Assembly: GCA_049517335.1 (NCBI GenBank)
Contig: JBEKSD010000002.1
Coordinates: 78,523 to 142,522, forward strand
Source of the DNA: Candidatus Omnitrophota bacterium
GTDB taxonomy: Bacteria; Omnitrophota; Gorgyraeia; Gygaellales; Profunditerraquicolaceae
Direction: 5' to 3'
DNA length: 64,000 bases
The translations under genes and the position numbers were made by a program. The notes below the pieces were generated by a model, which made no database searches, was not told the origin of the DNA, and was given only the letters and a program-made list of their open reading frames with translations. Positions 14,384-53,113 of this stretch are shown here, one piece after another. The first letter of the stretch is position 1; each line of letters starts with the position of its first letter.

Positions 14384-14459
14384 TAGGGACGGTTCTCAAG
14401 GCGAAGCTAAACTGTCCCCTAAAGGGGACAGTTTAAGATTAAGTTGAGAACCGTCCCTA
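14384..14459 (+). terminator. Nested double hairpin after ppdK: a 16-bp outer stem encloses a 12-bp inner hairpin
   Basis: TAGGGACGGTTCTCAA...TTGAGAACCGTCCCTA outer arms; AAACTGTCCCC/GGGGACAGTTT inner arms; lies between the ppdK stop and the sigma gene start. Confidence 0.5.
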
Positions 14460-19168: not shown

Positions 19169-20734
19169 ATGCTATATCTTGCTTTCATCTTCCACATGCA
19201 CCAGCCATACTATAAGGATCTCCTCACCCAAGAGGCAGAGCTTCCGTGGGTGCGGCTGCACGGGGTCAAGGATTACCTTGATATGGTGCAAATCTTGGGG
19301 CAATTCCCGAAAATTAAACAGAACTTTAACCTTGTCCCGTCACTACTGGAACAAATTGAAGGCTACGCAAACGACACTTTAAAAGATAAATTCCTTCAAT
19401 TATCCTCTAAGCCCACAAATGAGCTCAGTTCTTCCGATCAACAATTCATACTTGATAATTTCTTTTCTATAAATATAGAGAAAGTCATCGCAACGCACCC
19501 GCGGTATTATGCTCTCTATTTTAAGCGCCTTAATAAAGAACAATTTACTGAACAGAACTTTTTAGACCTGCAGGTTTGGTTTAATTTAGCCTGGATTGAC
19601 CCCTCATTTAGAAATGAGATAGCTGAATTAAAGAAACTTATACGCAAGGCCCGTTTTTTTAGCGAAGAAGACAAGCAGGTTGTTTTAAGCAAACAGGCTG
19701 AAATCCTACAAAATATAATCCCTGTGTATAAAAAATTTATGCAGTCAAAACAGGTTGAATTCACGGTAACGCCTTATTACCACCCCATTCTGCCGCTTCT
19801 CTATAATACAAACATAGCAAAGGAAGCTAACAGCAAAACCATCCTGCCAAAAGTTAAATTTTCTTATCCGCAGGACGCAGAAACCCAGATAAATTTAGCG
19901 GTTGATTACTTCAAAGCAAAATTCGGCTCAGCACCAGTTGGTATGTGGCCATCTGAACAGGCGATAAGCGAACACATATTGCCTTACATAATTAAATCCG
20001 GAATAAAATGGATTGTCTTGGATGAAGCGATATTATTTAAGTCCCTAAGAAGAAAAAAGAGGGATACTAACCTGCTTTACCAGCCGCATTTTATAAAGAG
20101 AGAGGAAGGTGAGCTTTCAATAGTATTCCGCGACAGGAATTTATCAGATTTAATCGGATTTGTATACCATAAGTGGACAGCGGAAAACGCAGTTTCAGAT
20201 TTTATCAGGCACCTTGAGGAGATTGCCTCAAGTTTTAAAGACAGGGATATTTTGGTAACTATTGCTATGGACGGGGAAAACGCGTGGGAATATTATTCAA
20301 ATGACGGGCATGATTTCCTTCAGCTGCTTTATCAGAGGCTTTCGGAATCAAAGATGATTCAAACAACAACGGTAAGCGAATATTTGAATCTTAAGCCTAC
20401 TGCATTAAAAATTGACAGGCTTGCCGCCGGCTCATGGATTTTTGGGGAATTCGGAAAATGGATAGGCAATCCGAAAAAGGCGAAAGCGTGGGAATACCTT
20501 GCTAAAGCCAGGCAAGAGCTAGAAGAAATCAGAACAGGAATTAATTCCAGCTCCGCCAATATAAACTTCGAACTTGCATGGAAACAAATGTATATTTTAG
20601 AGGGGAGCGACTGGTTCTGGTGGTTTGGCGAGGATCCCGATGGCAGTTTTGACCGCCTTTTCCGCAGGCATTTAACAAACTTCTATAATATAATAGGTAA
20701 GGAAGCCCCAGAATATACAACTCGCCCCTTATAA
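19169..20734 (+). CDS. Glycoside hydrolase family 57 protein (alpha-glucan branching/amylase-type)
   Basis: 521 aa; N-terminal FHMHQPYY GH57 signature; internal GEF(G)KWIG and WFWWFGED-like motifs. Confidence 0.75.
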   Translation: MLYLAFIFHMHQPYYKDLLTQEAELPWVRLHGVKDYLDMVQILGQFPKIKQNFNLVPSLLEQIEGYANDTLKDKFLQLSSKPTNELSSSDQQFILDNFFSINIEKVIATHPRYYALYFKRLNKEQFTEQNFLDLQVWFNLAWIDPSFRNEIAELKKLIRKARFFSEEDKQVVLSKQAEILQNIIPVYKKFMQSKQVEFTVTPYYHPILPLLYNTNIAKEANSKTILPKVKFSYPQDAETQINLAVDYFKAKFGSAPVGMWPSEQAISEHILPYIIKSGIKWIVLDEAILFKSLRRKKRDTNLLYQPHFIKREEGELSIVFRDRNLSDLIGFVYHKWTAENAVSDFIRHLEEIASSFKDRDILVTIAMDGENAWEYYSNDGHDFLQLLYQRLSESKMIQTTTVSEYLNLKPTALKIDRLAAGSWIFGEFGKWIGNPKKAKAWEYLAKARQELEEIRTGINSSSANINFELAWKQMYILEGSDWFWWFGEDPDGSFDRLFRRHLTNFYNIIGKEAPEYTTRPL

Positions 20735-23222: not shown

Positions 23223-23405
23223 ATGAGGCTTTTGGCAATTGAAAAGAAAGCGAAGGATTTAGGTATCACTGATACCTGGAAATACTCCAAGAGTGACTTA
23301 ATTAAGCTTATCCAGAAGAAAGAAGGCAATCAGGAGTGTTTTGCCACAAAATCGCGTTCAAAATGCAACCAGTTTATTTGCTGCTGGAGGGCTGACTGCA
23401 CATGA
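23223..23405 (+). CDS. small protein with Rho_N/SAP-like N-terminus and C-terminal Cys cluster
   Basis: 60 aa; LLAIEKKAKDLGITDTWKYSKSDLIKLI then C-x7-C-x4-CC-x4-C. Confidence 0.35.
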   Translation: MRLLAIEKKAKDLGITDTWKYSKSDLIKLIQKKEGNQECFATKSRSKCNQFICCWRADCT

Positions 23406-23587
23406 AATATCGCTGCCAGATCTGTGACAGGGATATTGACGATTATGTCAGCATTGCCCATATAAAGGCCGAAGAATATCTTATTGATCTTATTCAAAAA
23501 GACCATCCGGAATGGCACGAAAGCAAGAAAACCTGCCATAAATGTATCGAATATTACCGAAAATTAGTTAAAGAAAACGAAATTTAG
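23402..23587 (+). CDS. small zinc-ribbon protein
   Basis: 61 aa; CxxC ... CxxC; ATGA overlap with the preceding small ORF. Confidence 0.4.
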   Translation: MKYRCQICDRDIDDYVSIAHIKAEEYLIDLIQKDHPEWHESKKTCHKCIEYYRKLVKENEI

Positions 23588-23592
23588 ACAAT

Positions 23593-23628
23593 AAACCGGG
23601 GTCGGAATTAATTCCGACCCCGGTTTTT
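23593..23628. terminator. Perfect 28-bp palindrome flanked by A3/T5 (bidirectional terminator-like); founding copy of a palindromic element family
   Basis: AAACCGGGGTCGGAATTAATTCCGACCCCGGTTTTT immediately after a stop codon. Confidence 0.65.
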
Positions 23629-23696
23629 AACCTTATTTCTGAGTATATACTCATATTAACCCCAGCGTTAAAAGTAAGTAAGTTCGAGTAAAGTAA

Positions 23697-24035: not shown

Positions 24036-24346
24036 AATTCCGGTAAATACAAGTAAACAACTATAGACGCTGAGCCTCAAAAGCGGTCGACTTGGTACCA
24101 AAATCGCTATTTGCTCAACTTCCTATAATATACATTATGTTAACTTGATGATATTGAGAAAATTACCTTATCTTATTCTATCCCAATAGGTTATATTATA
24201 TTGTTTTTATGCTGTGGATAAGTCAAAAACCGTTTCCTTAAACTTACTTCTTTTTTAAAAGGTTGATATTCCGGTGGGATTACTTTCATTTTCCTATAAG
24301 GTTTTTTTGCGTTTAATCGCTTATTTCATCTTGCGGGTAAAACTGA

Positions 24347-24670
24347 CTATGGCAGGATAGATTGAGTTTTCTCCAAAGCGGTCGCGTTAATCCGGTCTAC
24401 GGCTTTCAATAAGCCCTCCCTCCGTTTTTGCTCAAAAAACAAGACAGGGTAGCTTTCTCGGCAAAGCTCCCACTCCCAGAGCCCTGATTTCAGGGGTTCT
24501 AGGGCCTGTTTTAGCCAGTATTTTAAGGGATCTCTGGAAATCCCTATAACTTCATTGATTGCATGAGTCGAAGTTTTCTGAGCTGAAAAACTGCCTATTT
24601 CCGGGCCATTTAGCCAAAGATGAATGGTAAAACTAAGGAGATTTTGCTCCCTGAGCTGCCTGGTAACCAT
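24347..24670 (-). CDS. orphan hypothetical ORF (possibly a gene fragment)
   Basis: 107 aa; no recognisable motif; followed by about 310 nt of AT-rich non-coding DNA. Confidence 0.25.
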   Translation of the reverse strand: MVTRQLREQNLLSFTIHLWLNGPEIGSFSAQKTSTHAINEVIGISRDPLKYWLKQALEPLKSGLWEWELCRESYPVLFFEQKRREGLLKAVDRINATALEKTQSILP

Positions 24671-24803
24671 AACCTATCCAGGCTCTTATAAATTGGGGGT
24701 TTCTGGAACCACTAGGAAAGGTATACGAGTGGCCAATTGACTTGGGTAAACCGGGGTCAGAGTCTAAGGGTTCTAACTCTAATTAATGCGTAAAATCATT
24801 TGA

Positions 24804-26522
24804 TTATTTTGGGAGTTTTTTTAAGCTATATAAAGCTGCCTGATTTGCGGGATCTATTGTTAATGTTTTCTGCCACATCTTTCTTGCTTCATCATAATTA
24901 TTCATTTTAGCATAAGTAATCCCAAGCCCGTTATATGCCTCAGGGTATTCTTTATTTAATTCTACGGCTTTTTCGTAATACCTAATCGCATCTATATATC
25001 TTCCGTTTTGCCCTACAGCGCTGGCTAAATTATTCCATGCCCTATAAAAATTAGGGTCTAAATCCAAAGCTGCCTTAAACTCCTCAATGGCTTCTGCGGT
25101 CATCCTTTTATTGAAATAACATTTACCCAATTCATTATGGTCTTCCGCATAATTCTTATCTAAACTTACCGCGATTTTATACTCTTTAATCGCTTCATCC
25201 AATAAACCTCTTTCAACATAAAAAGCGGCTAAGGTACTATGAGGCAGGGAATTGGTAGGATATTTATCTACCATATTCATCCAAAAAATAATATTGTTTT
25301 TATAGTAGAAATTACCCGTGAACGTAAAAATAGCATAAAAAATAATAATAGCTATTGCTATATTCTTAGAAAACTTCGAAATTAGCAACGCAAGGATCAA
25401 ACAAAAACCTACTGCCGGTAAATATAAATAACGGGGGGCAATGTAATTTGATAACGGGTATATTATGTTAGAAACTGGAATAAGACAGGCAAAGAACCAA
25501 AATACCCCAAATGCAACCAAAGGAAGCTTCTTATGCAATTTAAACGTAGTAAAAACAATTGATATTATCAATAAAACCGAAATTATAACTTTCAGGTTAA
25601 GTAACGAGTATGAAATTAAACCTGGATCATCCGGCAACGTAGAATGAATATTAACGGGAAAGAACATCCATTGAACATATCTGGCCAAAACCCTTAGCAT
25701 GGTAAGAATATTTGTATATAAATTCCTCATTGGGTATGTAATTAACGGATTATCAATGCTAGCCATTACAAAAAACCTGATAAAAATATAAAAAATCAAA
25801 ACGCCTAAATACCCCAAATAATACCTTTTAAAATGAGAAATAACGTCTTTGGGCCTTTTATTCAACAAATAATCGTAACCTAATAAAAGAATAGGGAAGG
25901 TAACAGACATTTCTTTAGAAAATAATGCCAAACAAAAAGAGACTAAAGAAGAGAAGTAAAACAACGCCCTCCTCCCTGCCTCCTCCCCCCTGCTTTTTAT
26001 ATAAAAAATAAAGGCTAAAATATAAAACAAGAAAGCAAGCAGATCCTTCCTAAAAGAAATACAGTTTACTGCTTCTACATTTACAGGATGAAGAGCAAAA
26101 AACAAAGATGCCAATATGGCTACTACCTCATTTCCTACTATTAAGTTTATAAACATGAAAAGAAGCAACGCATTCAACATGTGCAGGATAAGGTTTGTAA
26201 AGTGGTACCCGAAAGGGTTCAGCTTCCAAAAAGAATAATCTAGGAAATAAGTAAAAGTCCCTATCGGTCTGTATGTAAACTCTCCGGAACCTGTATCCTT
26301 TTTTCCAAGATAATCCAAATCCGAAACTTTAGTCAGGTAACTTCTGTTAAAAAGACGGGGGAAATTATTCCAGGATTTGACAAAATCATTATTCACTATA
26401 ACTGTAGAATCATCCCATATAAATGAATTTTGGAGGGAATTAGAATAAGCTAATGCCGTAAAAAACACTATGAATATAATAACCCATTTATTACCGCGTA
26501 AAATTGTATCTTTCGATATCAT
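24804..26522 (-). CDS. multi-pass membrane protein with C-terminal TPR repeats (DUF1736/PMT-like glycosyltransferase architecture)
   Basis: 572 aa; more than 8 TM helices, then 4-5 TPR units (AEAIEEFKAALDLDP, YDEARKMWQKTLTIDP). Confidence 0.6.
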   Translation of the reverse strand: MISKDTILRGNKWVIIFIVFFTALAYSNSLQNSFIWDDSTVIVNNDFVKSWNNFPRLFNRSYLTKVSDLDYLGKKDTGSGEFTYRPIGTFTYFLDYSFWKLNPFGYHFTNLILHMLNALLLFMFINLIVGNEVVAILASLFFALHPVNVEAVNCISFRKDLLAFLFYILAFIFYIKSRGEEAGRRALFYFSSLVSFCLALFSKEMSVTFPILLLGYDYLLNKRPKDVISHFKRYYLGYLGVLIFYIFIRFFVMASIDNPLITYPMRNLYTNILTMLRVLARYVQWMFFPVNIHSTLPDDPGLISYSLLNLKVIISVLLIISIVFTTFKLHKKLPLVAFGVFWFFACLIPVSNIIYPLSNYIAPRYLYLPAVGFCLILALLISKFSKNIAIAIIIFYAIFTFTGNFYYKNNIIFWMNMVDKYPTNSLPHSTLAAFYVERGLLDEAIKEYKIAVSLDKNYAEDHNELGKCYFNKRMTAEAIEEFKAALDLDPNFYRAWNNLASAVGQNGRYIDAIRYYEKAVELNKEYPEAYNGLGITYAKMNNYDEARKMWQKTLTIDPANQAALYSLKKLPK

Positions 26523-26554
26523 ATTTTAAGCCTATTCTTTACAGTATAATTATT

Positions 26555-27763
26555 TTATAAGGATTCAACGATGGCATTATAAACCGTTTCCGGCTTAATT
26601 GTTTTAAGGCACTTATTATCGCTGCAATCAGAATTTCTATGGTTTTGGGCTGATAAGCAGGGTGAACATGGCCAATTTGAGTAAATTATGCGGCTATTCT
26701 TACCTATGGGCCCGAAAACCTGCGGGCTTTCTGGTCCAAAAAGAATAAATTTCTTGATCACAGTAAGCATTGCTAAATGCACCAGTCCGCAGTCATTTGA
26801 AATCAGAACTTCTGAAATAAGGAATAATTCCATAAGTTCTTCTAGTGAAGTTTTTCTGGTAAAATCTATACACCGGGAATTACTGATAGCTCCGCGCATT
26901 AACCCGCTCTTTTTAGTGGCACCTTCGGTTCCTATGATAAGTATATAGTTCCTGCTATCTTGTAATAATAAATTAACAAGTGAAATAAAATTCTCCAACG
27001 GCCACTCCCTTAAAGGCAATACGCCTTCACCGGGATTAATAAGGAATATCCTGCGTTTGCTACCGATACCAGCATCTTTTAATTTCTTTTCTATGCTTTC
27101 TTTAATCTTAACCTTTGAGGCGTATTCCGGGAATACTAATTCTTCTTCAATTATTGCCGAATCTAATTGCGGATGATCTTTGGAGCTCGCTGAAACCGCT
27201 TGGGCAAAAGAAAGATAGGTTTTACTTACATGATTTGAAGGGTTATATTGAATTTTATGTGTGAGGAGGCTGCCTCTATATAACCCTTCAAAAGTATAAT
27301 GATGCAATCCTACTCTCTTTTTAGATCCGGACAGATAAGAAATTATTGCAGAAAAACGCGAAAAGAACTCCAAATCGAAAATAATATCTACGCCTTTTCT
27401 TCTTAATTGCCAGATTATTTTCAATGTATCCAAGACAAAAGTCAGAGGCGTTGTTTCGTCTATCGTAAGGATGTTACTATCCGGTATTATATTTCCGAGT
27501 AATTTAAAAATATCCTTATTTTTATTAAATGTTACAAAAAATACTTCGGCTAAAGGGTATTCTCTTTTTATATGGTTTAAAAGCGGATAGGATAAAATAA
27601 CTGTGCCTAATTCTGGTAGCTTTATAAAGGCTATTTTCTCAGGCGGTTTGTTTATTTTATTTTTTATGCGCAGTATTTTAGAAATATAAACCAGGATACT
27701 TAATAAAAAACATAAGGGTATTCCCAGCCAATAATCTATTTTTCTTGCCTTATCTATGTCCAT
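26555..27763 (-). CDS. Glycosyltransferase family 9 (heptosyltransferase-like)
   Basis: 402 aa; GT9 two-domain layout; C-terminal ...ISNDCGLVHLA... core. Confidence 0.7.
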   Translation of the reverse strand: MDIDKARKIDYWLGIPLCFLLSILVYISKILRIKNKINKPPEKIAFIKLPELGTVILSYPLLNHIKREYPLAEVFFVTFNKNKDIFKLLGNIIPDSNILTIDETTPLTFVLDTLKIIWQLRRKGVDIIFDLEFFSRFSAIISYLSGSKKRVGLHHYTFEGLYRGSLLTHKIQYNPSNHVSKTYLSFAQAVSASSKDHPQLDSAIIEEELVFPEYASKVKIKESIEKKLKDAGIGSKRRIFLINPGEGVLPLREWPLENFISLVNLLLQDSRNYILIIGTEGATKKSGLMRGAISNSRCIDFTRKTSLEELMELFLISEVLISNDCGLVHLAMLTVIKKFILFGPESPQVFGPIGKNSRIIYSNWPCSPCLSAQNHRNSDCSDNKCLKTIKPETVYNAIVESL

Positions 27764-27937
27764 ATTGACTTTAATTATATCACAGATTCGGCAAATACGC
27801 GCCCTAACTTATTATCTTATCTAGCTGCCACCTGAGGCTGGTATTATTAAACGATATTTGATAAATGTTTACGCCGGTATCTATGGAAAAATAATATACA
27901 GATTCCTGACCCCGGTTTAAAGATTTTCCTTTTGAAG

Positions 27938-28555: not shown

Positions 28556-28573
28556 ACCACACATTTGTGTGGT
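28556..28573. promoter_or_regulatory. Perfect palindrome ACCACACA-TT-TGTGTGGT in the lexA promoter spacer (candidate LexA operator/SOS box)
   Basis: Lies between a TTGACA -35 and a TATATG -10 on the minus strand, 13-30 nt upstream of the lexA start codon. Confidence 0.45.
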
Positions 28574-28713
28574 TTGTCAAGAAAAAAAACAAGCACCTTA
28601 AGTTTTTGTTCAGCGCAGTCTTTTGCACAAAGCGCAAAGGAAAAGTGCCTTATTATAGTAACATGAAAATATTTGAGAGTATTTCGATAAAATGGTAGAC
28701 GGAATGCAGCGTC

Positions 28714-29184: not shown

Positions 29185-29190
29185 TTATGG

Positions 29191-29217
29191 GGTCAGGCCC
29201 GAAGTTCGGGTCTGACC
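29191..29217. repeat. GC-rich hairpin GGTCAGGCCCGAAGTTCGGGTCTGACC directly upstream of the chagasin-like start; outer arms related to the palindromic element family
   Basis: 11-13 bp stem; no U-tract on either strand. Confidence 0.35.
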
Positions 29218-44052: not shown

Positions 44053-44820
44053 TTATTCTACTGCTTCTATAGAAACAATTTCAATAATGGGGTATTTCCC
44101 TTGGTAGCCGCTGAGTTTTCCGGTGACTTTTACTTTATTATAATTAATAGCGTCCAAACTTTTTTTATTACCCTTAAGAAGGTAAGTTTTGTCTAGGGAG
44201 ACGAGCTTATGGGTGGCTTGACGGCCGAATATCCTGCCGTAAGGCTGAATGATCCCTGTTATCGCGACTAAATCCGGTGAGGGCAGATCCAAAACCGGGG
44301 TAGGAATTAATTCCGGTCCCGGTTTTGACTCCGGTTTTTGCGCCGGCTTTACAAACTTCTTATTTACATAACCGAAGCTGTTGCGAATGGGCTCAATTTG
44401 AAACCAACCATTGGCATCCCCTAAAACATTTACAATCTCATCTTTATTAACCTTCCCTAAGATTTGCGAGTTCTCAGAAGGCTTAAGCCTGACATTAATC
44501 CTGTCTTTAGTGGCTTTAGCACTGCTACAGCTGGGTTCAAGCGGAAGACACTCAAATAAAGACTTTTTTACGAAAGAAGGGGCGTTTTTAGGCAGGCGTA
44601 TCCTATACCAGTCATATAATTCAGCACTTACCTCAACTGTATCATGGCTCTTTAATACGCAAATTACTTCGGAGGAGACCGTGGTATCGGCCCTGACATT
44701 AATGTTGTCAGAAGATATTTCCCCGTTAAATTTCCGGAATTCCTGCGCGAATGTAGTTGTGGCTGACAAAACCGCCACTGTCAACAGGACGAATACTATT
44801 CTAGGCAAAAAACAGCGCAT
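44053..44820 (-). CDS. secreted protein with two bacterial SH3 (SH3b) domains
   Basis: 255 aa; signal peptide; two INVR....(D)WYRI / GWFQI SH3b-like units joined by a Pro-rich linker. Confidence 0.6.
   Translation of the reverse strand: MRCFLPRIVFVLLTVAVLSATTTFAQEFRKFNGEISSDNINVRADTTVSSEVICVLKSHDTVEVSAELYDWYRIRLPKNAPSFVKKSLFECLPLEPSCSSAKATKDRINVRLKPSENSQILGKVNKDEIVNVLGDANGWFQIEPIRNSFGYVNKKFVKPAQKPESKPGPELIPTPVLDLPSPDLVAITGIIQPYGRIFGRQATHKLVSLDKTYLLKGNKKSLDAINYNKVKVTGKLSGYQGKYPIIEIVSIEAVE
44291..44326. repeat. Copy P2 of the palindromic element, in-frame inside the SH3 gene (encodes linker SKPGPELIPTPVL)
   Basis: AAAACCGGGGTAGGAATTAATTCCGGTCCCGGTTTT; 36 nt, 12 codons, imperfect palindrome; compare 23593-23628. 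Confidence 0.5.
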
Positions 44821-46784: not shown

Positions 46785-47898
46785 CTAACGCGTACCTATC
46801 GGTCATGCCCGCGATATAATCGCAAACTACTCTCTTCACGCCGTCTTTTGGTATTTTCTTCTGTATTTGCGCCGGTAACTGCTCCGGTTTCTTAAGATAG
46901 TCCTTAAATAACTCGGTTATAAAACGTTTTGCTTTATTACTCATCCTTACCACCCGGTAATGGTGATAAAGATCCGCCATAAGGAACTTCCGTAAAGGCT
47001 TCCTTAAGTCCAGCATCTCTTTACTAAAAACAACTACTTTAATGCCGCATTTTTTTGCTTTGAATGCGGAATCCAACTTAAGCCTCTTTAGGTTATTTTC
47101 CGTCTGCGATATGAGATCGGTAACCTGAATATCAATAAGAGACCTGATAATCTGGTATTTACGCAATTCGACATTTATTTTAGCATATTTAGAACCTATT
47201 TGTCTATTTATATTCTCCCAGATAGCCAGTCTTTCAAGTTCACCTTCCCTGATAAGTCCGGAAGTCAGGCCGTCATCTATATCGTGGTTATCGTAGGCGA
47301 CCTCATCGGCAATATCAACTACCTGCGTTTCAAGTGTGGGCATCTCTTTAGCGGAAAATTCCCTGATTTTTCCGGCTTTATCAAAAAGGGAAGAATGCCT
47401 TACGATACCTTCCCTTACCTCCCAGCTTAAATTCAGGCCGGGAAAACCGGGGTATCTTTCTTCAAGATAATCCACCACTCTTAAACCATGGACATTATGA
47501 TTAAAACCGCCACAGTCTTTCATTAATTCATTCAGCACCTCTTCCCCTGAATGGCCGAAAGGAGTATGGCCCAAGTCATGCGCAAGGGCAATGGCTTCGG
47601 TTAAGTCCGTGTTTAACCTCAGTGCCGAAGCTATAGTGCGGGCGATTTGAGCTACTTCTATCGTATGGGTCAGCCTTGTCCGGTAATAGTCCCCTTCATG
47701 GTTTACGAATACCTGCGTCTTATATTCAAGCCTCCTGAAAGCGGCAGAATGTATTATCCGGTCGCGGTCCCTCTGATAAACAGAGCGATAAGCATGTTCC
47801 TTTTCGGGATACTTCCTCCCTTTTGAGTTACAGCTCTTCATGGCGTAAGGCGCCAGAAAAACATCCTCGTATTCTCTAATTTGTCTTTGATTCAGCAT
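46744..47898 (-). CDS. dgt: dGTP triphosphohydrolase-like HD phosphohydrolase
   Basis: 384 aa; RLTHTIEVAQIAR HD motif; dGTPase-like length. Confidence 0.8.
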   Translation of the reverse strand: MLNQRQIREYEDVFLAPYAMKSCNSKGRKYPEKEHAYRSVYQRDRDRIIHSAAFRRLEYKTQVFVNHEGDYYRTRLTHTIEVAQIARTIASALRLNTDLTEAIALAHDLGHTPFGHSGEEVLNELMKDCGGFNHNVHGLRVVDYLEERYPGFPGLNLSWEVREGIVRHSSLFDKAGKIREFSAKEMPTLETQVVDIADEVAYDNHDIDDGLTSGLIREGELERLAIWENINRQIGSKYAKINVELRKYQIIRSLIDIQVTDLISQTENNLKRLKLDSAFKAKKCGIKVVVFSKEMLDLRKPLRKFLMADLYHHYRVVRMSNKAKRFITELFKDYLKKPEQLPAQIQKKIPKDGVKRVVCDYIAGMTDRYALDEYKKLFYPYEKV

Positions 47899-51186: not shown

Positions 51187-52476
51187 TTACCTGCCGGTAG
51201 ACAGACATTCTTCCATTACTTTTATAGAACAATAATTCCCGCACATGGTACAGACGCCCGAAAGTCCGGGTTTTGAAGATTGCCTGTATGCCCTTGCTTT
51301 ATCAGGGTCAATTGACAATGCTATTTGTTTTCTCCAGTTACGCTTTTTGCGTGACTCCGACATTAATCTATCCCAGACAACCGCCCTACTCTTAATCTTT
51401 ACCAAATCAGCGGCGTGTGCTGCAATCCTTGAGGCAATTACCCCTTCCCTTACATCATCAACCGAAGGGTGCCTTAAATGTTCCGAAGGAGTTACGTAAC
51501 AAAGGAAATCAGCTCCCGCGCTTGCGGCTATTGCCCCGCCTATTGCGCAGGTTATATGATCGTATCCTGCTGCGACATCCGTAACCAGCGGCCCCAATAC
51601 ATAAAAAGGCGCTCCCTGACAGATTTTTTTCTGGAGCGCGATATTTTTTTCTATCTGATCCAAAGGGACATGGCCCGGTCCCTCAATCATTACCTGCACA
51701 TTCCTTCTTCTTGCTTCCTGCGCAAGTTCGCCTAAGATCCGTAATTCAGTAATCTGGGGTTTATCGGTTGCGTCTAAAACAGATCCCGGCCTTAAACCGT
51801 CCCCCAAGCTTATCGTAACGTCGTATTTATAACAAATATCCAGTATTTTATCAAAATACTGGTAAAAAGGGTTCTCTTTACCGTTCCTTTTAATCCATGC
51901 TGCCAAGATTGCCCCGCCTCTTGAAACAATGCCCATTAGCCGTTTCTGTTTAATCAGGGCGTTTAAGCTTTTTTTCGTTACGCCGGAGTGTAGGGTAAAA
52001 AAATCCACCCCTTCTTTTGCCTGAGCCTCAAGTACGCCGAGCATATCATCAGAGTCAAATTCTAAAAAATCCTTTCTTTTCTCTTGCGCATTTACGGCGA
52101 TTTCATAAACAGGGACGGTGCCGACGGGAACAGTTGAACGTTTAATAATCTCACCCCGAATTCTTTTAAGGTGTGGGCCTACGCTTAAATCCATTACCGT
52201 ATCAGCCCCGTATTTAATGGCGGTGCTGAGCTTTTTTAATTCTTCATTTAGCTTTGATTTATCGGTTGAGGTGCCAATATTGGCATTGACTTTTGTAGAT
52301 AGACCCAATCCGATACCGCAGGGTTTTTTAAGGCGGCGGTTAATATTCTGTGGGATTACGATCTTGCCTTTACGGATGTTCCTAAGGAGAGTAAGAAGAG
52401 GAATTTTCTCCTGCCTTGCAACTTTTCTTATTATGGGAGTTGCGATGTTTTTTTTAGCTGCTTCCAACAAAGTCAT
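51187..52476 (-). CDS. thiC: Phosphomethylpyrimidine synthase
   Basis: 429 aa; ThiC core motifs; C-terminal CxxC..C cluster (CTMCGNYCS). Confidence 0.9.
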   Translation of the reverse strand: MTLLEAAKKNIATPIIRKVARQEKIPLLTLLRNIRKGKIVIPQNINRRLKKPCGIGLGLSTKVNANIGTSTDKSKLNEELKKLSTAIKYGADTVMDLSVGPHLKRIRGEIIKRSTVPVGTVPVYEIAVNAQEKRKDFLEFDSDDMLGVLEAQAKEGVDFFTLHSGVTKKSLNALIKQKRLMGIVSRGGAILAAWIKRNGKENPFYQYFDKILDICYKYDVTISLGDGLRPGSVLDATDKPQITELRILGELAQEARRRNVQVMIEGPGHVPLDQIEKNIALQKKICQGAPFYVLGPLVTDVAAGYDHITCAIGGAIAASAGADFLCYVTPSEHLRHPSVDDVREGVIASRIAAHAADLVKIKSRAVVWDRLMSESRKKRNWRKQIALSIDPDKARAYRQSSKPGLSGVCTMCGNYCSIKVMEECLSTGR

Positions 52477-52477
52477 T

Positions 52478-53113
52478 TTAATTTAAAACCTTATAAATAC
52501 GGTCTGCAATTTCCTTAAAGTTATCTTTTTCTAATATTGCCCTGCAAATAGCCGCCCGCTTTGCTCCCTGAGCGACTACGCTTTCTATATTGTCTTGCTT
52601 AATATCCCCTATAGCAAAATAGGGAATTTTGATTTTCCCTTCTAATTCCTTAAGGCCTCTTAAGCCGATTGGCGGATAATCGGGTTTTGTTTTTGTAGCG
52701 AACAGCGGGCCTATCCCGATGTAATCCGCACCCTGCCTCTGGGCAATTCTGGCCTGCTTTAGGCTATGACAGGAAACCCCAATTATTTTATTTTTACCCA
52801 GCAGTTTCCTTGTCTTCTTTACGGATGAGTCATTTTGCCCCAGATGCACCCCGTCGCAATCAGCAATCTTTGCTATTTCAGGGTAGTCGTTTATGATAAA
52901 TATTTTTCCGGAACTCTTAAATATCCTATTCAGCCTTATAGCTTCTTTCAGAAGGTTATTTTTATTTTCGTCCTTCGCCCTAAGCTGAATGATATCAATC
53001 TTTGAATCTTTAATTTTACCGGCAATTAAGTTTAACGGCTTATTGGCGCACGTTTTTTTATCTAATATGAGGTAAAGACGCGATTTTTTTAAGAGCTTCT
53101 TTTTCGGTTTCAT
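52478..53113 (-). CDS. thiE: Thiamine-phosphate synthase
   Basis: 211 aa; RLYLILD start, IIQLRAK, IGVSCHS, YIGIGPLF motifs. Confidence 0.8.
   Translation of the reverse strand: MKPKKKLLKKSRLYLILDKKTCANKPLNLIAGKIKDSKIDIIQLRAKDENKNNLLKEAIRLNRIFKSSGKIFIINDYPEIAKIADCDGVHLGQNDSSVKKTRKLLGKNKIIGVSCHSLKQARIAQRQGADYIGIGPLFATKTKPDYPPIGLRGLKELEGKIKIPYFAIGDIKQDNIESVVAQGAKRAAICRAILEKDNFKEIADRIYKVLN

Follow-up and report, generated by a model that had tools for sequence, protein, structure and literature searches.

The 64-kb stretch of Candidatus Omnitrophota contig JBEKSD010000002.1 analysed here (the window; GC content ~41%) contains a 34-bp palindromic unit that occurs both between genes and in frame within coding genes. 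In the ~70 kb of sequence covered for this strain, namely the 64-kb window and an extension of ~6 kb in which no new copy was found, there are three full-length copies and two solitary arms; one of the full-length copies is intergenic, and the other two lie in frame within coding genes. With confidence that is about evenly balanced, we suggest that the window carries a small, lineage-restricted, low-copy family of palindromic elements resembling repetitive extragenic palindromes (REPs). Contigs from two other samples (JGI 3300038451 and Logan SRR13021960) match the window at 99.99-100% identity and include copy 1 and both of the half-sites formed by the solitary arms. Since these features were reproduced in two independent samples, they are not assembly artefacts.

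Three full-length copies of a 34-bp palindrome

Copy 1 (23593-23626, no strand assigned) is a perfect 34-bp palindrome, AAACCGGGGTCGGAATTAATTCCGACCCCGGTTT, which is followed by two more T. Its core, CCGGGGTCGGAATTAATTCCGACCCCGG, occupies 23596-23623, and the AAA/TTT flanks extend the palindrome to 34 bp, so that the unit consists of 15-nt arms (AAACCGGGGTCGGAA) enclosing a TTAA loop. The sequences bordering the unit are GACAAT and TTAACC. Between copy 1 and the TAG stop of the preceding zinc-ribbon gene (23402-23587, + strand) there are 5 nt. This gene encodes 61 amino acids and is kept across Omnitrophota, with nearly all of its 110 homologs having the same length, and the DUF134 gene begins 70 nt downstream of the palindrome. 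The RNA of copy 1 folds (-27.7 kcal/mol, z = -5.8) into a stem of 15 bp that is closed by a 4-nt loop, with a U5 tract on the 3' side of the stem and an A-tract upstream, as in terminators of the bidirectional type. Copy 1 is the only copy in which a GC-rich hairpin and a U-tract are located just past a gene, and we presume from this arrangement that it serves as the intrinsic (Rho-independent) terminator of the zinc-ribbon transcript.

Copy 2 (44292-44325, - strand) is a decayed palindrome that has the same base as copy 1 at 31 of 34 positions and lies in frame in a gene for an SH3-domain lipoprotein-like protein (44053-44820, - strand), which comprises two SH3_3 domains and a C-terminal beta domain. 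The core of copy 2 at 44295-44322 shows three mismatches to that of copy 1, where 0 matches are expected in shuffled sequences, and the copy is flanked by GATCCA and TGACTC. It is read as AAA CCG GGA CCG GAA TTA ATT CCT ACC CCG GTT and encodes the inter-domain linker KPGPELIPTPV(L). In an AlphaFold model based on 22 sequences, predicted local distance difference test (pLDDT) values are below 50 at residues 163-180, which connect the second SH3 domain to the C-terminal beta domain, and the residues encoded by copy 2 (K166-L177) fall inside this segment.

The nearest ortholog of the SH3 gene is found in the related locus L120 from JGI 3300037067 (amino acid identity 82% by multiple alignment and 79% by BLASTP; nucleotide identity 86% over 3.4 kb), and this gene carries AACAAAGGGCGGGAATTAATTCCGGTCCCGGTTT, read as AAC AAA GGG CGG GAA TTA ATT CCG GTC CCG GTT, at the same place. 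The right arm in L120, TTCCGGTCCCGGTTT, is the exact reverse complement (15/15) of the left arm in the window, AAACCGGGACCGGAA. The SH3 copy of their common ancestor was therefore probably perfectly palindromic, and decay seems to have affected one arm in the lineage of the window and the other arm in that of L120. The two SH3 copies now differ at 9 of 34 positions, while their flanks diverge by 14%; since the divergence of the copy is no slower than that of the flanks, the hairpin is not conserved inside the gene. In SH3 orthologs at 60-69% identity, the linkers are unrelated, have lengths of 14-27 amino acids and do not contain the element.

The arm-like 13-mer AAACCGGAGTCAA (44325-44337, - strand) abuts copy 2 and belongs to three tandem codon quartets of the form AAR-CCG-Gnn-nnn. 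These quartets form the tandem 12-nt units AAG CCG GCG CAA / AAA CCG GAG TCA / AAA CCG GGA CCG of the SH3 linker (44326-44350, - strand), which encode KPAQ, KPES and KPGP and run into the palindrome. The SH3 gene of L120 is devoid of the first 12-nt unit and also of the downstream PSPDL duplication.

Copy 3 (20527-20555, + strand) is an in-frame decayed relic located in a variable loop of a GH57 gene (19169-20734, + strand). When we ran nhmmer with an element profile built from the known copies, this site scored 16.3 bits (E = 7e-4), and the best score among 20 shuffled windows used as a control was 12.4. The 12-bp centre of the element, GGAATTAATTCC, occurs exactly three times in the window, once in each of the three copies, and the third occurrence is at 20537; the centre of copy 3 is thus exact and about half of its arms has decayed. 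The GH57 loop is composed of 16 amino acids in the window (EEIRTGINSSSANINF), compared with 7-8 amino acids in L121 and L123 and 12 amino acids in L140, and the 8-9 residues by which it exceeds the loops of L121 and L123 are situated precisely at the position of the relic.

On either strand, two of the three reading frames of the element are open. Frame 1 encodes KPGSELIPTPV and frame 3 encodes TGVGINSDPG, and the only stop codon (TAA) is in frame 2. The SH3 copy uses frame 1, and the GH57 copy uses frame 3. A preliminary description of this DNA had reported a perfect palindrome after the zinc-ribbon stop and a near-identical in-frame copy in the SH3 gene, and had proposed a comparison of SH3 orthologs with and without the insert. 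Both copies are confirmed, the first extending to 34 bp in the form of a terminator and the second agreeing at 31 of 34 bases and encoding KPGPELIPTPV in a disordered linker; the ortholog comparison yielded a decayed copy in L120 and, at 60-69% identity, unrelated linkers that are free of the element.

Solitary arms in the remodelled SOS operon and other local hairpins

The 13-mer AAACCGGGGTCAG is present exactly at 24748-24760 (+ strand) and 27906-27918 (- strand), and the stretch shared by these two sites comprises 14 nt, TAAACCGGGGTCAG, at 24747-24760 and 27906-27919. By our own arithmetic, ~0.5 inverted pairs of 14 nt within 3.2 kb are expected by chance per 64-kb window, and therefore the pairing of the arms alone proves nothing. 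The exact 12-mer TAAACCGGGGTC, however, is common to copy 1 and both arms, all within 4.3 kb, where ~0.005 extra occurrences are expected by composition, and for this reason we kept the solitary arms as probable relatives. Sites that match the 13-mer with at most one mismatch were also more frequent than expected (5 seen against 0.08 expected). Based on these shared words, the two solitary arms are probably related to the palindrome family, and decayed copies minus one arm or footprints of microhomology-templated rearrangement are both candidates for their origin.

Both arms are located in an SOS operon that has been remodelled in the window (24333-27937). The usual gene order in relatives is lexA, a gene of 102 amino acids (p102) and dinB, followed by DUF134 on the opposite strand. 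In the window, lexA is followed by 18 nt, TAAACCGGGGTCAG, the 3' end of p102, a GT9 glycosyltransferase gene, a TPR membrane protein gene, ~15-20 nt and a dinB remnant. The lexA-side arm (27906-27919, - strand) thus begins 18 nt past the lexA stop and continues in frame into p102, of which just the last 36 codons are left (27804-27911). The dinB-side arm (24747-24760, + strand) lies inside the dinB remnant, with the minus-strand reading ...TCT GAC CCC GGT TTA (SDPGL), which corresponds to frame 3 of the element. The remnant (~24333-24790) is a frameshifted pseudogene that starts near residue 214 and contains CTGACCCCGGTTTA; the open reading frame (ORF) at 24347-24670 is a dinB fragment. The GT9 (26555-27763) and TPR (24804-26522) genes together form a block on the minus strand (24804-27763) that has a lower GC content of 35% and replaces the 5' two-thirds of dinB.

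The related locus L135 represents an intermediate, in which an intact p102 is followed by the same GT9-TPR block and neither arm is present; its nucleotide identity to the window is 88% in lexA and 80% in the cassette. In the alignment of the two loci, CCGGGGTCAG of the window corresponds to CCGCGGCCAG of the intact L135 p102, which encodes RRGQ. The L135 sequence reads CGC CGC GGC CAG GAA and that of the window reads (AA)C CGG GGT CAG GAA, with differences at third codon positions, and the G-Q codons (GGT CAG in the window) are conserved in all relatives. The dinB-side arm is surrounded by GAA CCC TTA GAC (EPLD; EPLE in L140) upstream and CCC AAG TCA ATT GGC (PKSIG) downstream.

Two structural explanations of this region were rejected. 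The arms are not the halves of a hairpin split by insertion of the 3.1-kb GT9-TPR block into the loop of a lexA terminator, because the dinB-side arm is located within native dinB codons, the junction between the cassette and dinB lies ~25-30 nt upstream of this arm, and the lexA-side arm precedes the 3' end of p102. Nor is the block a cargo element with terminal inverted repeats (TIRs), because the homologous block of L135 is devoid of both arms and of any inverted repeat at its borders.

Upstream of or overlapping the annotated lexA start, the minus strand at 28557-28580 reads TTGACA-AA-CCACACAAATGTGTGG-TATATG. The 16-bp palindrome CCACACAAATGTGTGG is thereby placed between -35-like and -10-like hexamers and is therefore a candidate LexA box. 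Translation of lexA probably begins at the downstream ATG instead (MEKK...), in line with the orthologs of 200-201 amino acids.

A further GC-rich hairpin, GGGGTCAGGCCCGAAGTTCGGGTCTGACC (29189-29217, no strand assigned), is located 5 nt upstream of the ATG of a gene for a chagasin-like inhibitor. It has a folding energy of -25.8 kcal/mol on the plus strand, and only the 9-mer GGGGTCAGG is common to this hairpin and the arms of the family. A T-tract is present only on the plus strand, where no gene ends, and the hairpin could have a role in stabilisation of the mRNA 5' end or in termination of an antisense transcript. A match to AAACCGGGGT at 47447 was rejected as a family member, as it merely represents the codons YPGF in a dGTPase-like gene. 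The preliminary description had listed half-copies of the palindrome at 24748-24760 and 27904-27919 and a related hairpin at 29191-29217. The half-copies are indeed exact shared 14-mers, but they are not free-standing halves, each being embedded in the remnant of a native gene (p102 or dinB); the hairpin exists as well, but its kinship with the family is not established.

Hairpin turnover in relatives and a second palindromic family

Relatives that share this gene order have a conserved block upstream of DUF134, which includes the palindrome GAGTATATACTC (GGTAAGTACCC and similar sequences in the relatives). This palindrome lies at 23641-23652 in the window, ~45 nt before the start of DUF134, and it is kept in all relatives while the adjoining hairpin changes. 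GAGTATATACTC probably serves DUF134, a regulator gene, as an operator or promoter element. The slot between the zinc-ribbon stop and this block, which is occupied by copy 1 in the window, contains five other, unrelated hairpins in L145, L141, the L140-144 group, L121, L123 and L133. L145, from which the closest zinc-ribbon protein was retrieved (87% identity; 79% at the nucleotide level), has GGCGCCGGCC..GGGCTGGCGCC at this position, L141 has GGGCCTATT..AATAGGCCC, and L140, L142, L143 and L144 have a 64-nt element, TAGGGACGGTTCTC..GAGAACCGTCCCTTA; L121, L123 and L133 have other hairpins. When we compared L140 with L141, the two sequences were 99.98% identical upstream of the slot and 99.7% identical downstream, and the sole break was the exchange of the 64-nt module for a 41-nt module. 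Since the slot holds a different hairpin in each lineage, a presumed terminator is always present and the hairpin itself is swapped quickly.

A second palindromic family, (T)AGGGGACGGTTCTC..GAGAACCGTCCCC(TA), in short GGGGACGGTTCTC..GAGAACCGTCCCC, fills intergenic spacers. In the window, it takes up the space that separates the pyruvate phosphate dikinase gene from the sigma-70 gene (14384-14459). It was also found at no fewer than four sites in L121 (5959-6037, 10630-10660, 10985-11022 and 11660-11707), in the L140 group of L140, L142, L143 and L144 (8196-8247 in L140), and in L146 and L147. It is this family that is exchanged for another terminator at the zinc-ribbon slot between L140 and L141. 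One of the L121 copies makes up the spacer between lexA and p102, which is 45 nt long there, an expansion that consists of hairpin only, compared with 3-11 nt in L122, L123 and L135. The dinB linker of L121 contains an in-frame variant whose 22-nt arms are perfect and which encodes NQGNGSLENKRTVTLI. Arms of the second family are present on two IMG/VR contigs with GC contents of 49% and 57%. These observations show that short palindromes move or are exchanged in the clade and can sit in frame, and by analogy they lend some support to mobility of the 34-bp family.

In several relatives (L121-L123 and L133/L134), the dinB linker is itself bracketed by an in-frame inverted repeat, ACTTACCGGGATTTT (LPGFF)...AAAATCCCGGTAAGT (ENPGKS), which is intact in L122, L123 (11552-11587) and L133/L134 and absent from the L140 group. 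In L121, only the left arm ACTTACCGGGATTTT is retained, and the right arm is replaced by the second-family palindrome. The interior of the linker is variable and reaches 130 nt with hairpins of its own in L133. In these lineages, this segment seems to stand in for a portion of the thumb region, which is kept in DinB of the L140 group. With the bracketing repeats and the second-family palindrome at the same place, the dinB linker is a recurrent home for palindromic sequence.

When we scanned reference genomes with the pattern AAACCGGGGTNNG..CNNACCCCGGTTT, the matches listed were dominated by hairpins of high-GC Proteobacteria and Actinobacteria. More than 119 hairpins of the form AAACCGGGGT..G were among the matches listed, mostly beginning with AAACCGGGGTCAG, from Stenotrophomonas, Massilia, Luteimonas, Limnobacter and others. 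A type with AAACCGGGGTCAG...CTGACCCCGGTTT as its outer stem and a palindromic interior that varies was, among the same listed matches, frequent in Stenotrophomonas, Luteimonas, Massilia, Duganella and Limnobacter, and it also occurred in some metagenome-assembled genomes of Actinomycetota and Acidobacteriota. Most of the listed matches had CA at the two free positions of the pattern. The dinB-side arm of the window and the Stenotrophomonas-type hairpin have 17 nt in common (AAACCGGGGTCAGAGTC). A pair of such hairpins in the Stenotrophomonas locus L014 was considered as a transposase unit and rejected, because an ordinary gene of 157 amino acids lies between them; from its sequence and neighbours, this gene presumably encodes the chi subunit of Pol III.

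Origin of the copies and comparison with known systems

According to the reading that we prefer, the copies would have arisen through insertion of a hairpin-forming unit. A copy landing just past a stop codon, such as copy 1, would act as a Rho-independent terminator, and this copy is still a perfect palindrome. Copies landing in an open frame may have survived as extra peptide segments, which would now be decaying at a roughly neutral rate, and the surviving coding copies sit in regions that are presumably tolerant, the disordered SH3 linker and the variable GH57 loop. The simplest account of the two 14-nt arms left in the remnants of p102 and dinB would be further copies that lost one arm through palindrome-stimulated deletions. 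The candidate moving enzyme would be an HUH Y1 transposase of the REP-associated tyrosine transposase (RAYT) or TIRYT type that is encoded elsewhere.

Several results weigh against insertion of a mobile unit. No empty site was found at nucleotide resolution for any copy; the linkers and loops concerned are too variable to align. Copies 1 and 2 have neither a target-site duplication nor a GTAG or CGTC tag. Among the scanned ORFs of the window (~40 by Pfam plus those of the gene tables, all but two ORFs at 51187-53113), there is no transposase, integrase or Y1 gene. The profile search of 118 kb of relatives' loci gave no copy except the orthologous SH3 copy of L120, and the element matched nothing in plasmid, phage or viral collections. 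A metagenome scan for the element core returned just seven unrelated hairpins, but it missed the JGI contig that is known to carry copy 1, and this negative result is therefore weak. The solitary arms also overlap native-looking sequence: 6-10 of the 14 nt of the lexA-side arm look native to p102, and native dinB codons are present on both sides of the dinB-side arm, so that these arms may not be derived from the element at all. In further searches, neither the window nor any individual hairpin matched an Rfam family, and looking for the sequence strings in the literature yielded nothing but primers. Among the titles listed in a brief literature check, no report of such palindromic repeats in Omnitrophota surfaced. 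The preliminary description had suggested a mobile or selfish family; the family is real, with three copies and in-frame members, and it may be mobile, although no empty site or target duplication was found, nor a transposase among the scanned ORFs of the window.

Other explanations were considered as well. The palindromes could have formed without transposition, by local hairpin-templated (template-switch) inverted duplication, and could then have been spread or homogenised by short-patch gene conversion and homologous recombination between strains, with the arms as footprints of microhomology-mediated rearrangement of the SOS operon. The native-looking p102 (GGT CAG) and dinB sequence contained in both solitary arms would fit such a history, and so would the SH3 copy of the window, a hybrid with a left arm of the GGGACC type and a right arm near the copy 1 type, which suggests conversion. 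The exchange of modules between identical flanks in L140 and L141 is as expected of homologous recombination, and the left arm of the dinB palindrome in L121 merges with the native codons GAA AAT C.. GGT AA. However, local inverted duplication would yield arms specific to each locus, whereas here three loci 3-24 kb apart share the 12-bp centre and two of them share 31 of 34 bases, and the genes that contain the copies are unrelated, so that their flanks offer no homology for conversion. We regard this explanation as unlikely, though it deserves serious attention. A similar standing is given to the possibility that only the two or three full palindromes are related and that the solitary 14-mers, the hairpin at 29191 and the match at 47447 are due to chance or codon usage, which we consider improbable without dismissing it. 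The expectation of ~0.5 exact 14-nt inverted pairs within 3.2 kb, the YPGF codons at 47447, the in-frame position of both arms in coding remnants and the mere 9 nt shared by the 29191 hairpin all agree with it; the 12-mer TAAACCGGGGTC in copy 1 and both arms and the excess of sites resembling the 13-mer argue in the opposite direction.

It is very unlikely, in our judgement, that the family represents a functional motif of 13-14 nt, such as a DNA-uptake-like signal or the half-site of a binding protein, that was gained by mutation and drive and is found alone in coding DNA and, as an inverted pair, in terminators. The solitary arms do stand in coding contexts and look partly native, as substitution-born motifs would, a terminator is formed by an inverted pair, and four arms cluster around the SOS genes lexA and dinB. 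Against this, there are only seven arm-like sites in 64 kb (~0.1 per kb), which are clustered, and the core hexamer CCGGGG/CCCCGG shows no enrichment, occurring 28 times where 25 +/- 5 would be expected. The copies have kept the loop and centre GGAATTAATTCC in common, which a half-site would not need, and the motif is absent from the 118 kb of relatives. A more far-reaching proposal, for which we see a rather slim chance, is that a RAYT/TIRYT-type Y1 transposase, recognising a motif shared across phyla, uses the hairpin modules of the clade (the GGGGTCAG arms and the members of both the 34-bp and the GGGGACGGTTCTC families) as its ends or substrates, and that these modules would be exchanged like cassettes at terminator slots, would prefer open linker frames for insertion, recurrently in DinB, and would have taken part in the remodelling of lexA-dinB. 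All three types of module begin with GGGG-W-C-R-G.

If our reading of a REP-like family holds, selfish palindromes of the REP or Rickettsia palindromic element (RPE) kind would also occur in Omnitrophota, an uncultured phylum. One element would then have met three fates, namely co-option as a terminator, fossilisation as linker or loop residues, and possibly survival as single arms at rearrangement junctions. The replacement of hairpins between strains that are 99.7-99.98% identical provides a practical marker for strain typing, and annotation of the SH3, GH57 and DinB proteins calls for caution because their extra residues may be derived from repeats.

Among known systems, RPEs reportedly occur both between genes and in frame in intact genes (Ogata et al. 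in 2000 and 2002). RPE-1-type elements are ~100-150 bp long, RPEs are present in tens to hundreds of copies per genome, and their insertions are found in tolerant, surface or linker regions. The family of the window resembles them in its in-frame presence in intact ORFs (SH3 and GH57) and in the tolerance of the regions concerned, but its unit of 34 bp, past which no repeat extends, falls short of their length and it belongs to another phylum. REPs have lengths of 20-40 bp, are usually located less than 20 bp from the 3' ends of ORFs, and have been proposed to function in transcription termination and mRNA stabilisation, with families that vary from one species or strain to another (Di Nocera et al. 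2013, PMC3733652). A variable number of REPs lie wholly inside ORFs and encode extra residues, many of them in DNA-repair genes including those of error-prone polymerases; such intragenic REPs are most numerous in Opitutus terrae and R. conorii, and recB of two Xanthomonas species carries different REPs at about the same site (PMC3733652). The resemblance to RPEs drawn in the preliminary description is thus retained for in-frame insertion, while the size is that of REPs and not of RPEs, and REPs within ORFs are known outside Rickettsia (PMC3733652).

The 34-bp stem-loop of the window agrees with REPs in size, in its position at the 3' end of an ORF and in its intragenic copies. It differs from them in that neither end of the palindrome has a GTAG or CGTC tag, which sets it apart from tagged REPs, and in its perfect palindromy, its loop of 4 nt and its flanking A/T-tracts. 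The three copies seen in ~70 kb are a very low number, and no RAYT gene is present among the scanned ORFs of the window. Miniature inverted-repeat transposable elements, with TIRs, a target duplication and lengths of 70-300 bp, are a poor match, since the unit has 34 bp, no internal unique sequence and no flanking direct repeat. TIR repeats that flank RAYT-like TIRYT (Y1 transposase) genes share the motif GGGGWSAS, and self-complementary families of them exist in S. maltophilia (PMC3733652). The sequence GGGGTCAG of the solitary arms and of the 29189 hairpin fits this motif, as do the listed AAACCGGGGTCAG... hairpins of Stenotrophomonas, Massilia and others, and an inner arm of the 14384-14459 element reads GGGGACAG. 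In contrast, the arm of copy 1, GGGGTCGG, departs from it at one position, copy 2 (GGGGTAGG / GGGACCGG) does not fit either, and no TIRYT gene is present among the scanned ORFs. The link to TIRYT/Y1 transposases through this 8-nt motif is thus a lead and not a test.

DNA uptake sequences (DUS) of Neisseria and uptake signal sequences (USS) of Haemophilus likewise occur as single units in coding DNA and as inverted pairs in terminators. The density in the window is about ten times lower than that of DUS (~1 per kb), the sites are clustered, the core is not enriched and the loop is conserved between copies; an uptake-sequence-like motif was rejected on account of the low density and the lack of enrichment of the core hexamer. 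Copy 1 is like intrinsic terminators in form, but an ordinary terminator has no near-identical copies in coding genes. The behaviour described here is already known from REPs and RPEs, and it represents no new class of mechanism.

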